Made by a program: the position numbers and the translations under genes. A stretch of DNA of 43,102 bases, from assembly GCA_002782865.1 (NCBI GenBank), contig PFJC01000004.1:1-43102 (forward strand), read 5' to 3'. The notes below the pieces were generated by a model. The model did no database searches and was not told the DNA's origin. It saw nothing but the letters and a program-made list of their open reading frames with translations. The DNA comes from Candidatus Uhrbacteria bacterium CG_4_10_14_3_um_filter_41_21. Lineage in GTDB: Bacteria; Patescibacteriota; Patescibacteriia; UBA9934. Shown here in pieces: positions 18,122 to 30,548 of the stretch (the first letter of the stretch is position 1; each line of letters begins with the position of its first letter).

Positions 18122-18150
18122 TTGACAAAAAAGCGACTTCTTGCTAGTGT
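18122..18150 (+). promoter_or_regulatory. sigma70-like promoter at the left edge of the high-GC island
   Basis: Consensus TTGACA (18122-18127), 17 nt spacer, TAGTGT (18145-18150). GGAG at 18192-18195 lies 5 nt before the ATG at 18201. Confidence 0.5.
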
Positions 18151-18200
18151 GAGGGGTCGTTTTTCGTTTTGGGGGACGACAATCTCAACCTGGAGCGAAG

Positions 18201-18506
18201 ATGTCTGACAAGATCCGTGTGCGTGTGAAGGCCAACACCCATCGCAACCAACCCGTGGTCGTTGAAGTCGAGATCAGCGATTTCAATGATCCCCGACTCA
18301 CCGAACTCGTTCAGGGCTCGAAGGTCAAGATCGAGATCGAGATCGAAGAGCCGACGGAGGCGCAGGCGTCGCTTCTCGGGCGGCTCATGTTCTTGAGCTC
18401 ACCGGATGCCGTGGCCGACATTGGCAAGTCGGTTCCGCCCTCGACGCGCAAGACCGAGGATTTCCCGGTCGAAGTCATGATCCTGAACCTGCGCAAGCCG
18501 GTTTAA
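18201..18506 (+). CDS. upstream part of an RNA polymerase alpha-CTD-like gene (unknown N-terminal domain), ends at in-frame TAA
   Basis: GC-rich codon usage. The C-terminal residues ILNLRKPV align with the start of the alpha-CTD motif. Same reading frame as 18522-18758. Confidence 0.5.
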   Translation: MSDKIRVRVKANTHRNQPVVVEVEISDFNDPRLTELVQGSKVKIEIEIEEPTEAQASLLGRLMFLSSPDAVADIGKSVPPSTRKTEDFPVEVMILNLRKPV

Positions 18507-18521
18507 GTCCTCGAGCCCTCG

Positions 18522-18758
18522 GTGCGTGCTGCAAACAGAATCGAGGATCATTTTGATGGCATGCGAATCGACGAGATTCCGCTCTGGAGGGTCTGCGAGC
18601 TGGGCGAAGACGAGATTCTCAAGCTGAAGAACTTCGGTCGGTCGAGTTTCAAGCAAACGAAAGAGGCTCTCGACGAGCTCGGCCTCCGTCTCGGCATGAG
18701 GGATTTCATCGAGGAGCACAAGATCGAGATCCTTCGTCAGGAAACCGACCCCGACTGA
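18522..18758 (+). CDS. RNA polymerase alpha-subunit C-terminal-domain (HhH)-like segment
   Basis: VRAANRIED...LKLKNFGRSSFKQTKEALDELGLRLGM compared with E. coli RpoA CTD [10 protein letters not shown]...[28 protein letters not shown] (from memory). Only a GTG start and no RBS are available. Confidence 0.55.
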   Translation: MRAANRIEDHFDGMRIDEIPLWRVCELGEDEILKLKNFGRSSFKQTKEALDELGLRLGMRDFIEEHKIEILRQETDPD

Positions 18759-18760
18759 TC

Positions 18761-18824
18761 GACGCCAACGAGGCGTCATCGTCTGCCCGATCACTGTTAA
18801 CAGGTGGTCGGGTATTTGTTTTGT
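18761..18824 (+). terminator. two hairpins and a T-tract closing the island gene
   Basis: GACGCC-AACGA-GGCGTC (18761-18777). CCCGATCACTG-TTAA-CAGGTGGTCGGG (18786-18812) is followed by TATTTGTTTTG. Confidence 0.55.
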
Positions 18825-18829
18825 CCGAG

Positions 18830-18847
18830 CACATGAACCGCCCCTAC
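18830..18847. repeat. half unit of the CCCCTAC palindromic family
   Basis: CACATGAACCGCCCCTAC. Confidence 0.6.
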
Positions 18848-19055
18848 GATTTCCTCTCCCCATTCAGAGGAGGCCGATAGGCCGACGAAGAATCTCTTTG
18901 TGTCTCCACCCCGGACCTGCCTGCCCGTCCGAAGCCCGAAGGGCGAAGGCGGGTTCCGGGGCCCAGCGACTTTCGTTAGGCACCGGCACTACGGCCGGTG
19001 TGGAAATGAGGGAGGGAACGATTGTGAGTAAAGTGAAGCAATCTCAATTCTTAAC

Positions 19056-19081
19056 GGGCGGACACATGGGTCCGCCCCTAC
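19056..19081. repeat. full unit of the CCCCTAC palindromic family
   Basis: GGGCGGAC-ACATGG-GTCCGCCC followed by CTAC. Confidence 0.8.
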
Positions 19082-19111
19082 GGTAATCAATTTCGTACAT
19101 CCAATTCGATT

Positions 19112-19135
19112 GGACACGGCATGCCGTGTCCCTAC
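19112..19135. repeat. variant unit of the CCCCTAC palindromic family
   Basis: GGACACGGCATGCCGTGTCC is a perfect 20-nt palindrome, followed by CTAC. Confidence 0.7.
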
Positions 19136-19136
19136 G

Positions 19137-19164
19137 TCCAACATCCAACATCCAACTTCCAACA
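19137..19164 (+). repeat. tandem heptamer array TCCAAC(A/T) x4 directly upstream of leuS
   Basis: TCCAACA TCCAACA TCCAACT TCCAACA, then a degenerate TCCTATC. Confidence 0.85.
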
Positions 19165-19217
19165 TCCTATCCCCAAACATTGCACCCAACCCAAATTTCA
19201 GCTAATATTCATTTACT

Positions 19218-21971
19218 ATGTACGACCACAAAGACATCGACAAAAAATGGCAAAAGCGCTGGGAAGACGAAGGCGCCTTTAAGGCCGAAGATGAATCAGA
19301 TAAACCAAAATATTATTGTCTGATTGAATTCCCATACCCTTCGGGCGACGGCTTGCATATGGGGCATCCGCGCAGTTACACAGCACTCGATGTGGTGGCG
19401 CGTAAAAGGCGAATGGAAGGGTACAATGTCTTGTATCCAATCGGCTGGGATGCTTTTGGTCTGCCAACAGAAAATTATGCTATCAAAACCGGTCGTAAAC
19501 CCCAAGATGTAACTCGCGAAAATACTGATACTTTTCGTCGTCAGCTCAAATCTTTAGGATTGAGTTTTGATTGGTCGCGGGAAATCAACACTACCGATCC
19601 GCAGTATTACAAATGGACCCAGTGGATGTTTTTGGAATTTTTCCGCGCCGGTTTGGCTTATAAAAAGAAGATGCCGATTAATTGGTGTTTGAGTTGTAAG
19701 ATTGGTTTGGCAAATGAAGAAGTTGTAGACGGAACTTGCGAGCGCTGTCATGGACCAGTTGAAAAACGCGATAAGGAGCAGTGGATGATTGCGATCACCA
19801 AGTATGCGGACAGACTTTTGACAGACCTCGACACAGTCGACTATCTACCAAAAATCAAAAAGCAACAGCAGGATTGGATTGGAAAATCCGAAGGGGCGGA
19901 GGTTGATTTTGAAATCGAGTCATCCAACATTCAACATTCAACATCCAACAAACTGAAAGTTTTTACAACTCGCCCCGACACTTTGTTTGGCGCAACCTAT
20001 ATGGTACTTGCACCGGAGCATGAACTTGTGAAAAAGATCACGACTGAAGAGCAGAAGTCTGAAGTTGAAAAGTATGTTGCTACGGCGCGAAAAAAATCAG
20101 ACATCGAGCGTGGCGATGCCACCAAAGAAAAAACCGGCGTGTTCACGGGTGCTTATGCCATCAATCCGGCCAGCAACGAAAAGATTCCAATTTGGGTAGC
20201 CGACTATGTAATGATGGGCTATGGCACTGGGGCGATTATGGCTGTCCCGGCGCATGATGAAAGGGATTTTGAGTTTGCCAAGAAGTTTGATTTGCCGGTT
20301 AAGCCAGTAGTAATCAAAGACCAGGATCAGAGCAGAAGTTTTGTGATGGGAGTAGACGAATCAGAAATAAAAAAACTAGGAATTACAATTGTTGAAAAAA
20401 CAGATGATGGTTTTTACAAGATTTTGATCCCGTTTGATCGAATTAATGCTTATAAGGAGTTTATTCGTGAAAAAATGCAGCCAGGGTTTTGGAACGAGTT
20501 CAGCACTTCCAATGGTTTCTATTTTGTCTTCAAACACAAGGATGGTCGATTAGAAGAAATGGAGCTCAACGCTGAAACCAATGATTTGATTGATAAGTAT
20601 GGGATATTATTTAACGATGAGGCGCCAAGAGAAAAGCCGGAGAACGTGTACTTGTGGTTGGCGAAAAATAGTTTTTACGGGGAGATTCTTATTCATACCG
20701 AGGTTGGCGTTGCTATTAATTCCGACTTTCTCAACGGACTTTCGACCGCTGAAGCCAAAGATAAAATGATAACTTGGCTTGAGGAAAATGGAAAAGGGAA
20801 GCGAGCGATTAACTACAAACTTCGCGATTGGGTGTTCAGTCGTCAGCGATATTGGGGTGAGCCGATTCCGCTTATCAATTGTGATAATTGCGGTTGGGTG
20901 CCGGTGCCAGTTTCTGATCTTCCAGTTGTATTACCAGAAGTCGATAAGTATGAGCCAACAGACGATGGGGAGTCGCCACTTTCAACAATCACAGATTGGG
21001 TTAATACAACTTGTCCAAAATGTGGCGGACCAGCAAGGCGGGAGACAGACACCATGCCCAACTGGGCGGGATCGAGTTGGTATTTCTTGCGTTATACCGA
21101 CCCGCACAACAATAAAGCGTTTGCGGACACGGACAAGCTCAAGTACTGGACACCGGTGGACCTTTACAATGGGGGGATGGAACACGTTACACTCCATCTG
21201 CTCTATTCTCGTTTCTGGCACAAGTTTCTATTTGATCGCGGGCACGTCCCAACGAGTGAGCCATACGCTCGTCGTCATTCACACGGTTTGATTTTGGCCG
21301 AAGACGGCAGAAAGATGAGTAAGTCACTGGGCAATGTTGTTAATCCGGACGAGATAATTGGTGAATTTGGTGCTGACTCACTTCGAGTTTACGAAATGTT
21401 TATTGGTCCATTTGAAGAGCCGGTGCCTTGGAACACAAATGGTTTAATCGGGGTGCGAAGGTTTTTGGATAAAGTGATGAAACTTGTGCCACTCATAGGA
21501 GGCAGTGAGCCAGAGTCAGTTACACGCGCACTGCATAAAACAATTAAGAAAGTTACCGAAGATATTGAAGGATTTAGGTTCAATACGGCTGTGTCGCAGA
21601 TGATGATTTTTGTAAACGAAGTAAACTCAGATGGGCAAATTTCAGAAAAGAGCTTAATGGAATTTGCGAGAATCCTTTGCCCATTTGCACCACATGTTGC
21701 CAATGAAATGGCTTTCAAGCTTGGAGCTCAGGATTTACTAGAAACTCATTCCTGGCCTAAATACGATGAAAGTTTAACTGTAGATGACACTGTTACCATC
21801 GCCGTTCAAGTAAACGGAAAATTGCGTGCAACTATCGTGGTTCCACTAAACATCTCTCAAGCCGATGCGGTTGAGAGTGCAATGAAACAAGTAAATGTGG
21901 CTAAGTTTGTTGAAGGAGAACCTAAGAAAGTTATTTATGTAAAAGGCAAATTAATTAACTTTGTTGTCTAG
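19218..21971 (+). CDS. leuS: leucyl-tRNA synthetase with an extra ~110-aa insertion after the editing domain
   Basis: HMGHPRSY (HIGH), TTRPDTLFGATY editing domain, AVPAHDERDFEFA, KMSKSLGN. Confidence 0.95.
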   Translation: MYDHKDIDKKWQKRWEDEGAFKAEDESDKPKYYCLIEFPYPSGDGLHMGHPRSYTALDVVARKRRMEGYNVLYPIGWDAFGLPTENYAIKTGRKPQDVTRENTDTFRRQLKSLGLSFDWSREINTTDPQYYKWTQWMFLEFFRAGLAYKKKMPINWCLSCKIGLANEEVVDGTCERCHGPVEKRDKEQWMIAITKYADRLLTDLDTVDYLPKIKKQQQDWIGKSEGAEVDFEIESSNIQHSTSNKLKVFTTRPDTLFGATYMVLAPEHELVKKITTEEQKSEVEKYVATARKKSDIERGDATKEKTGVFTGAYAINPASNEKIPIWVADYVMMGYGTGAIMAVPAHDERDFEFAKKFDLPVKPVVIKDQDQSRSFVMGVDESEIKKLGITIVEKTDDGFYKILIPFDRINAYKEFIREKMQPGFWNEFSTSNGFYFVFKHKDGRLEEMELNAETNDLIDKYGILFNDEAPREKPENVYLWLAKNSFYGEILIHTEVGVAINSDFLNGLSTAEAKDKMITWLEENGKGKRAINYKLRDWVFSRQRYWGEPIPLINCDNCGWVPVPVSDLPVVLPEVDKYEPTDDGESPLSTITDWVNTTCPKCGGPARRETDTMPNWAGSSWYFLRYTDPHNNKAFADTDKLKYWTPVDLYNGGMEHVTLHLLYSRFWHKFLFDRGHVPTSEPYARRHSHGLILAEDGRKMSKSLGNVVNPDEIIGEFGADSLRVYEMFIGPFEEPVPWNTNGLIGVRRFLDKVMKLVPLIGGSEPESVTRALHKTIKKVTEDIEGFRFNTAVSQMMIFVNEVNSDGQISEKSLMEFARILCPFAPHVANEMAFKLGAQDLLETHSWPKYDESLTVDDTVTIAVQVNGKLRATIVVPLNISQADAVESAMKQVNVAKFVEGEPKKVIYVKGKLINFVV
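19933..19960 (+). repeat. second heptamer array T(C/T)CAACA x4, inside the leuS reading frame
   Basis: TCCAACA TTCAACA TTCAACA TCCAACA, translated as SNIQHSTSN. Confidence 0.85.
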
Positions 21972-26413: not shown

Positions 26414-26487
26414 TCTCAGCTTTTAGCTACTAGCTCTTAGCTTTTAGGGTTTTCTAACAGCTATAAGCTAACAGCTAACAGCTTTTC

Positions 26488-27162
26488 ATGTTTCTCGAAT
26501 TAATCACCCAAGCTCCAATAATGGCGCTGGCTTGGCTGGCTGTGATTTTGATTTCCATTACTGTCCACGAATTCGCTCATGCCTGGGCAGGAGATAGATT
26601 AGGCGATCATACAGCCGAGCAAATGGGGCGCTTAACCTTAAATCCATTGGCGCATATTGATCCAATCGGAGTTATTCCGCTTTTGCTTTTAGGATTTGGT
26701 TGGGCAAAACCAGTTCCGTTTAATCCTTACAATCTTCAAGACCCAAAATGGGATTCAGTTAAAATCGCATTGGCTGGCCCGGCATCGAATTTAATCGTTG
26801 CTACATTGGCTGCAATTGTTTTGCGTGGACTTTCAACCGCCGGCGTCATTGGAGACTTGAATCTTTTGTCATTCTTTTTGATTCTTTTGGTGATAATCAA
26901 TTTATTTTTACTCTTTTTTAATATCATCCCAATCCATCCACTTGATGGTTCAAAATTGCTAGACGCATTGCTAGTAAAGCCAGAGCATCAAAAGATTAGA
27001 AACGCCATTGCTACTTATGGACCAAGGGCATTAATGTTTCTTATTTTAATCTCAATTTTTACTTCAATCAGTGTTTTCTCATTTATCAGTACCCCAGCCT
27101 ATATGACTTGTGATGCTTTGGTAGGGGAGAGCTGTACGGCAGTTTTGATGCAGGTATTCTAA
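26488..27162 (+). CDS. M50-family (site-2 protease-like) membrane metalloprotease
   Basis: HEFAHA zinc motif inside a TM helix, polytopic, with a second motif region NIIPIHPLDGSKLL. Confidence 0.8.
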   Translation: MFLELITQAPIMALAWLAVILISITVHEFAHAWAGDRLGDHTAEQMGRLTLNPLAHIDPIGVIPLLLLGFGWAKPVPFNPYNLQDPKWDSVKIALAGPASNLIVATLAAIVLRGLSTAGVIGDLNLLSFFLILLVIINLFLLFFNIIPIHPLDGSKLLDALLVKPEHQKIRNAIATYGPRALMFLILISIFTSISVFSFISTPAYMTCDALVGESCTAVLMQVF

Positions 27163-30428: not shown

Positions 30429-30548
30429 GCGTCTTGACCACATTTCTAATTGCGATAAGATGCGGGTATATAAGAGTGGCTAGTGACAAGAGTCAGTTGA
30501 CCAAGTTTAATAGAATCACTAATCGCTAATAATTAATCATTGCACTCT

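Follow-up and report, generated by a model that had tools for sequence, protein, structure and literature searches.

The C-terminal domain of the RNA polymerase alpha subunit (alpha-CTD; Pfam PF03118; PDB entries 1LB2, 3N4M and 9ZUM) has an (HhH)2 fold and is carried, in RpoA proteins of ~315-340 residues, on a flexible linker that extends from the N-terminal domain. In E. coli, residues R265, N268, G296, K298 and S299 form what we take to be the DNA-binding '265 determinant', and positions 258, 259 and 261 of RpoA are presumably the contacts to region 4 of sigma, as positions 285-289 and 317 are presumably those to CAP.

The C-terminal helix-hairpin-helix domain of Sxy/TfoX has been placed in the alpha-CTD superfamily (10.1101/284836). 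Sxy/TfoX is a small protein made up of an N-terminal domain and this C-terminal HhH domain, and it is an earlier example of an HhH protein that stands alone and acts at promoters with RNA polymerase and an activator. In the literature searched no paper on free-standing alpha-CTD proteins was found; such proteins are annotated by domain, and stand-alone alpha-CTD-domain proteins are already present as annotated entries in the databases. One of them is the Candidatus Uhrbacteria protein MDP2631173.1 (P0122 in this work), named at NCBI 'DNA-directed RNA polymerase subunit alpha C-terminal domain-containing protein'. It has the same two-domain architecture as the protein described here, and belongs to the same family and the same host phylum.

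The stretch of DNA analysed, referred to below as the window, is the 43,102 nt contig PFJC01000004.1 of Candidatus Uhrbacteria bacterium CG_4_10_14_3_um_filter_41_21. A preliminary description, made from the letters of the sequence, had pointed to an alpha-CTD-like gene that is interrupted by an in-frame TAA within the conserved motif. Here we compare this locus with the systems mentioned above and consider the origin of the stop codon.

Two reading frames

An upstream reading frame of 101 codons starts with ATG at position 18201 of the window and ends with TAA at 18504-18506. Five sense codons after this stop the same frame has its first start codon, GTG at 18522, and remains open to TGA at 18756-18758. 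This layout, on which the sequence and the list of open reading frames agree, is the one given in the preliminary description, and the read-through string reported there equals the translation obtained here. ATG 18201 is preceded, at a distance of 5 nt, by a ribosome-binding site, GGAG (18192-18195, forward strand). No Shine-Dalgarno sequence could be found before GTG 18522, as had also been stated. An in-frame ATG at 18561, with GAGGA 14 nt upstream, is taken as the start by some annotators.

Evidence of two kinds links the two frames. There are orthologous alleles that encode the 185-aa protein intact (P0001, P0002 and P0006, present in sister contigs, and P0008 and P0009), and alignments with RpoA alpha-CTDs cross residue 102, the position of the stop. 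These comparisons show that ORFs 18201-18506 and 18522-18758 are a single gene (18201-18758, forward strand), which encodes a 185-aa protein and is interrupted in this strain. The downstream ORF (18522-18758, forward strand) is the 3' part of this gene rather than a separate gene, and the database entries that correspond to it, P0004 and P0007, are annotation fragments. By the terms of the preliminary description, homologues consistently occurring as two genes with their own starts would have spoken against it; the homologues found are single genes.

Downstream of the gene the hairpin search detected a strong intrinsic-terminator-like structure with a 12-bp stem and a T tract (18784-18824, forward strand). 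The same hairpin is covered by a weak, terminator-like Rfam match (Atu_C7, E 0.28), which was the only Rfam match in the GC-rich island described below. The presence of this hairpin suggests a monocistronic unit.

On the opposite strand there is a 154-aa ORF (18399-18863, reverse strand), which some of the assemblies with the broken allele annotate as a gene. It is probably a shadow ORF: it had no family match and lies opposite a gene that has homologues. Its sequence is GC-rich.

Relationship of the C-terminal domain to the alpha-CTD

The resemblance of the C-terminal part of the protein to RpoA, proposed earlier by alignment with the E. coli sequence, was borne out by searches of several kinds, which agree in assigning an alpha-CTD-like (HhH)2 domain to residues ~96-167 (18486-18701, forward strand). 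The NCBIfam RpoA model NF003513 matched residues 94-167 to RpoA 251-318 (E 7.3e-9). A phmmer search of all PDB sequences found RpoA alpha-CTDs only (best E 2.5e-4, residues 97-166), and a profile built from the protein and its six closest homologues found RpoA chains only (E 2.3e-25). In the AlphaFold2 model residues 91-180 have pLDDT values of 81-92, and Foldseek superposed 69-76 residues on alpha-CTD chains of E. coli, Vibrio, Caulobacter and Bacillus with an rmsd of 1.2-2.1 Å and TM-scores of 0.73-0.91 (normalised to the target).

The Pfam profile PF03118 (RNA_pol_A_CTD), the test suggested in the preliminary description, gave a weaker result with the window protein itself. With Ser or X at codon 102, the score was 18.9 bits (E 1.2e-3), below the gathering cut-off of 23.8 bits, and the match was confined to the second hairpin; no other Pfam family matched the protein. 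The seven closest homologues scored 48-72 bits each over profile positions 2-67. The low score of the window protein is probably due to a six-residue insertion, HFDGMR, after helix 1 of the domain. Judged by homology and by the predicted fold, the C-terminal domain belongs to the family of alpha-CTD domains.

The alignments with RpoA cover residues 94-167 or 97-166 of the query and run without a break across residue 102, so the domain spans the stop and the TAA lies inside it. Residue 102 is aligned with D258 of E. coli RpoA, which is the first Asp of VDDLEL, just as had been described.

Alignment with E. coli RpoA showed that the minor-groove contact residues are largely preserved: the equivalents of R265, N268, N294, G296 and S299 are kept in the window protein. 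At the K298 position it has Ser, whereas seven other family members have K or R. The position of G279 is occupied by a Trp that is invariant in the family. In contrast to the DNA-contacting residues, the positions corresponding to the sigma contacts (258, 259 and 261) and to the CAP contacts (285-289 and 317) are not conserved.

The arrangement of a domain, a flexible linker and an alpha-CTD mirrors that of the alpha subunit. There are nevertheless clear differences from RpoA. The window protein has only 185 residues and is without the alpha-NTD (no match to PF01193 or PF01000), its best RpoA equivalog score was 35 bits as compared with a cut-off of 302, and the gene lies outside an rpsD-rpoA-rplQ ribosomal operon such as that in which E. 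coli rpoA is found. The protein is not RpoA, since the NTD is missing, the location is different and none of the scores comes near its equivalog cut-off.

With Sxy/TfoX the window protein shares its small size and the combination of an N-terminal domain with a C-terminal HhH domain. TfoX_N and TfoX_C gave no Pfam match in the window protein even at E <=10; unlike Sxy/TfoX, it has a C-terminal domain that is specifically of the alpha-CTD type, and there was no sign of a CRP-like partner. Within the literature searched, Sxy/TfoX is the closest functional analogy.

A family-specific N-terminal domain

Residues 1-64 (18201-18392, forward strand) make up an N-terminal domain that was recognised by a family profile and by its motifs, DPRL and P-x-T-x-E-x-A-x-x-LG-R/K-L-x-F/Y. 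Residues 65-88 (18393-18464, forward strand), which come next and have pLDDT values below 50, are predicted to be a disordered linker. The N-terminal domain had no match in Pfam, among PDB sequences or in fold searches; its pLDDT in the AlphaFold2 model was 48-76, and the Foldseek matches were meaningless (E >=0.5). Collinear phmmer and MAFFT alignments had given rise to the idea that this domain could be a remnant of the RpoA NTD, left by an internal deletion. Comparison with RpoA NTDs did not support this, hmmsearch giving scores of at most 2.3 bits and hhalign a probability of 0.1%.

When 1.84 billion representative proteins were searched exhaustively with phmmer, 99 matches were obtained, most of them only to residues ~95-167. 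Most of these, as judged from a sampled subset that was checked, are apparently RpoA or other proteins with an alpha-CTD, and the matches of a profile search were likewise dominated by proteins that the sources name RpoA. Six phmmer matches of 161-171 aa (P0010, P0015, P0022, P0028, P0031 and P0057) align with the window protein over most of their own length, and P0122 (155 aa) was added by profile search. A profile of the N-terminal ~90 residues matched the members of this family only, together with one truncated relative (P0222). In the 1.84 billion proteins searched, the family consists of 8 clusters, at least two of which are from Uhrbacteria.

The membership of P0122 was supported by an N-domain profile from which P0122 had been left out (E 1e-12). 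P0122 is an intact protein that passes the Pfam threshold and is without the helix-1 insertion. It shows ~32% identity to the window protein (tblastn), and its gene has a different neighbourhood. Between two lineages the dN/dS ratio of the N-terminal domain was 0.29, indicating a real, constrained coding sequence. Across the loci compared, family members had no conserved neighbour genes; PHROGs gave no match for the protein family, and PADLOC only a marginal one, to PglW, with a single homologue (E 0.006).

Alpha-CTD-like segments were also encountered in proteins of other design. P0025, P0108, P0113, P0118 and P0123, one of which is from Bradyrhizobium sp. USDA 4448, are ~320 aa long and combine a conserved N-terminal domain with two tandem alpha-CTD-like repeats, and P0029, a 318-aa Uhrbacteria protein, has a single C-terminal alpha-CTD. 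The only viral contig with such a segment (IMGVR_UViG_3300030419_002867; L106, 4638-5300) codes for a protein of 220 aa whose N-terminal part is different and, by eye, looks like a helix-turn-helix. By these domain comparisons, alpha-CTD modules are reused in several architectures.

Origin and distribution of the stop codon

When the joined sequence was searched against 5.8 billion proteins, one cluster was found, and its representative is the intact 185-aa protein. The contig that carries this representative (L001) matches the window over 2066 nt with 99.8% identity; it has C at 18505, and its codon 102 is TCA. Other intact variants in the cluster are P0002, which corresponds to the hypothetical proteins PIZ54409.1 and PJB84353.1 of Candidatus Uhrbacteria, and P0006, P0008 and P0009, whereas P0003 (101 aa) and P0004, P0005 and P0007 (63-78 aa) are annotation fragments of the broken form. 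SNP tables show that the in-frame TAA at codon 102 (18504-18506, forward strand) arose by a single C to A change at 18505, which turns a Ser codon (TCA) into a stop. In homologues the position of codon 102 is occupied by D, G, N or Y. Inspection of this codon, a check that had been suggested with the preliminary description, therefore revealed TCA in the sister strains and a sense codon in all of the distant homologues, which identifies TAA as the derived state.

It has been pointed out that artefacts account for many of the 'pseudogenes' with internal stops in assemblies (PMC11017572), and metagenome consensus sequences can mix strains. Both points would favour a sequencing or assembly error in the window contig as the source of the TAA. 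The first of them is answered by the recurrence of the TAA across samples and assemblers. Seventeen contigs, obtained from different samples, encode the 101-aa product, and A at 18505 was found with at least four pipelines: NCBI MAGs (GCA_002793535.1 and GCA_002788995.1; three with the window included), JGI, ENA assemblies with megahit and with SPAdes contig names, and Logan. Samples that do not have the TAA form consistently give C at 18505, and the flanking sequence of the TAA form is otherwise identical between contigs. A one-off error is strongly disfavoured by this recurrence, and we find it hardly credible as an explanation.

The intact 185-aa forms are commoner than the TAA form: 36 blocks of the collection list P0002, and 24 contigs carry P0006. 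In a set of 22 related contigs, which are ~99.9% identical, the A/C difference at 18505 was the chief segregating site.

Decoding of the UAA, either by read-through or by suppression, would allow the full 185-aa protein to be made even from the TAA allele. Past the stop, the frame is open throughout and does not differ from that of the intact P0002, as this explanation demands, but the same is equally expected of a very recent mutation. Against decoding stands the use of TAA in the window, where it is the commonest stop and terminates 30 of the 46 long ORFs, the remainder ending with TAG (14) or TGA (2). TGA is thus a rare terminator in this segment of the genome. Moreover, the three tRNAs encoded in the window are ordinary ones for Thr, Lys and Arg, and the stop lacks conservation: a sense codon stands in its place in the sister strains and in every homologue. 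To our knowledge, no bacterial code reassigns UAA. Recoding is very unlikely on these grounds, and we do not regard the stop codon as a pointer to a new decoding mechanism.

Of the three options left by the preliminary description, a recently inactivated allele is the best supported. It is favoured by the TCA codon of the sister strains; sequencing error is opposed by the 17 contigs, and read-through by the usage of TAA and by the homologues, none of which has the stop. Two features expected of a nonsense (unitary) pseudogene allele, namely an intact orthologous allele and a stop that is reproducible across independent data, were found. A stop conserved in orthologues, which would be characteristic of read-through or reassignment, was not found, and TAA is a normal terminator in the window.

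Another possibility is that the truncation is functional or selected. In this case the 101-aa N-domain product would work alone, a restart at GTG 18522, 15 nt past the stop, might provide a separate alpha-CTD, and the population would contain two functional states. Several observations are compatible with such a scheme. The TAA allele is common, as described above, and is found together with either version of an indel located upstream of leuS. The stop is at a domain boundary, past the linker and a short helix. The variants in the population are clustered in codons 93-131 and are mostly non-synonymous, although this excess is biased, because the contigs were fetched via distinct protein variants.

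An independent case of alpha-CTD loss was also seen. A second family member from the same sample set (ENA ERZ27293400, k141_1360676; L100, 1-1977) is 79% identical at the nucleotide level to the gene of P0122, but the similarity ends after 'SVRVANC', in helix 1 of the alpha-CTD. The next gene encodes an ISL3-family transposase (Pfam DDE_Tnp_ISL3, E 3.5e-43), and the N-domain ORF has remained intact despite the insertion, which removes the alpha-CTD only. However, every disruption of the 3' half of a gene leaves the 5' half, and two cases are weak evidence. No natural family member was found that consists of the N-terminal domain only and has no visible disruption, and a restart has to contend with the lack of a Shine-Dalgarno sequence before GTG 18522. 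Selected truncation is, in our estimation, improbable. The ISL3 disruption of the L100 member at the same time makes decay of the window gene plausible.

Taken together, the comparisons between contigs make it probable that the TAA is a naturally segregating nonsense allele that would entail loss of function, or truncation, of a stand-alone alpha-CTD gene in a near-clonal groundwater population of Candidatus Uhrbacteria. On this evidence the allele is an instance of ordinary strain-level gene decay in a little-known family. Both versions of the leuS-upstream indel, as established by comparison with L002 and L014-L016, were found with the stop allele and with the intact allele. The occurrence of TAA on both haplotypes needs recombination, recurrent mutation or chimeric assemblies. 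The stop codon matters chiefly for annotation, as fragments that are listed as separate small proteins, one of 101 aa and the other of 65 or 78 aa, are one gene. In addition, the locus offers a natural pair of intact and truncated alleles for population studies.

Diversification of codons 93-131 by a mechanism of the DGR type was also considered. It was rejected, since no second copy of the island (18141-19140), which includes the variable stretch (18483-18592), is present in the window.

Locus and possible function

The gene is located between a rhodanese gene and leuS and has its own terminator-like hairpin. A composition scan showed that it is part of a GC-rich island (18140-19140) with 55-62% GC as compared with ~40% for the genome; the island comprises the gene and ~320 nt of GC-rich non-coding DNA. 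The GC3 value of the gene is 0.757, whereas that of the 46 window genes is 0.32 +/- 0.06 (z = 6.9). In three other host loci (L017, 6001-6468; L101, 6001-6486; L105, 6001-6492) the GC3 of the family gene was the highest or joint-highest, and the gene of P0122, like that in the window, is a GC3 outlier in its own locus. Over the loci examined, the window included, GC3 of family genes ranged from 0.70 to 0.88. That the family gene was at the top in every locus examined suggests that horizontal transfer has occurred repeatedly, or that an unusual constraint acts on composition.

Related Uhrbacteria keep the order TrxR-GDH-[variable]-leuS, but the gene is absent there. In L047, L052, L054, L055, L058, L060 and L093 the interval between gdh (or the rhodanese gene) and leuS is 17-1843 nt long and contains ORFs that are unrelated from genome to genome. 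The absence of the gene from this slot in related Uhrbacteria points to a lineage-specific acquisition in a variable slot. By composition and gene order, the window gene is a compositionally foreign accessory gene upstream of leuS. A bounded mobile element was considered and rejected, as the GC-rich island is not flanked by terminal repeats, either direct or inverted. The island had no similarity to the other fetched loci.

Conservation of the DNA-contact residues makes it probable that the intact protein, like the alpha-CTD, binds to the minor groove of A/T-rich DNA. Judging from these residues, binding would involve the conserved surface formed by R109, N112, G146 and S149. The N-terminal domain would provide a second contact, either to a partner or by oligomerisation, and the intact protein could be a small transcription factor, perhaps an activator, or it could compete for UP-like sites or titrate factors that bind the alpha-CTD. 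As regards the decoy or adaptor role suggested in the preliminary description, conservation is seen in the DNA-contact residues only and does not extend to the sigma and CAP surfaces. In TAA strains translation would end at residue 101, giving a product that consists of the N-terminal domain and the linker and has no alpha-CTD. If this picture is correct, the proteins constitute a rare family in which the part of RNA polymerase that binds promoter DNA has been separated from the enzyme and joined to a new domain, in bacteria with very small genomes, and they would offer a simple handle on DNA recognition of the alpha-CTD type outside RNA polymerase.

A more ambitious interpretation can be formulated. 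It would see in these proteins a mobile, foreign 'mini-alpha' family (novel N-terminal domain, linker and alpha-CTD) that acts in Uhrbacteria at UP-like A/T tracts or titrates the partners of the alpha-CTD. Loss of the alpha-CTD would have been selected repeatedly at this site, once through a nonsense mutation and, in a different lineage, through insertion of ISL3, and the TAA/TCA difference would be maintained as a switch between on and off or between full-length and truncated states. We consider this combination of assumptions unlikely to be right, and prefer to regard the TAA as a nonsense allele with loss of function.

Repeats and non-coding DNA near leuS

Between the terminator-like hairpin and leuS there are 392 nt of non-coding DNA (18826-19217), of which the first ~320 nt are GC-rich. 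The folding z-score of this segment is -3.4, and several perfect hairpins occur in it, one of them being GGACACGGCATGCCGTGTCC at 19112-19131. It gave no Rfam match and showed no likeness to the other fetched loci. The indel mentioned above is at 19140-19157, where the window has TCCAACA repeats and other contigs have a 59-nt GC-rich segment (CCCGGCGAAGCCGGGCCAGGCTCCGCCTGGC...TGCCAACTGCCAAC).

Tandem arrays of heptamers, with ~4 copies each, were noticed at 19137-19167, 19921-19950, 26414-26483 and 30514-30539. The TCCAACA array is 50 nt upstream of leuS, and a near-identical unit occurs in frame within leuS, at codons ~235-245, where it encodes SSNIQHSTSN. TCTTAGC and CTAACAG arrays lie directly upstream of the gene at 26488, and an AATCACT array directly upstream of ORF 30540.

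In one contig (L013) five synonymous differences from the window were found within 16 nt of leuS (19469-19484), close to the end of the match at 19488. They represent either a short recombination tract or an assembly artefact caused by the mixing of strains.
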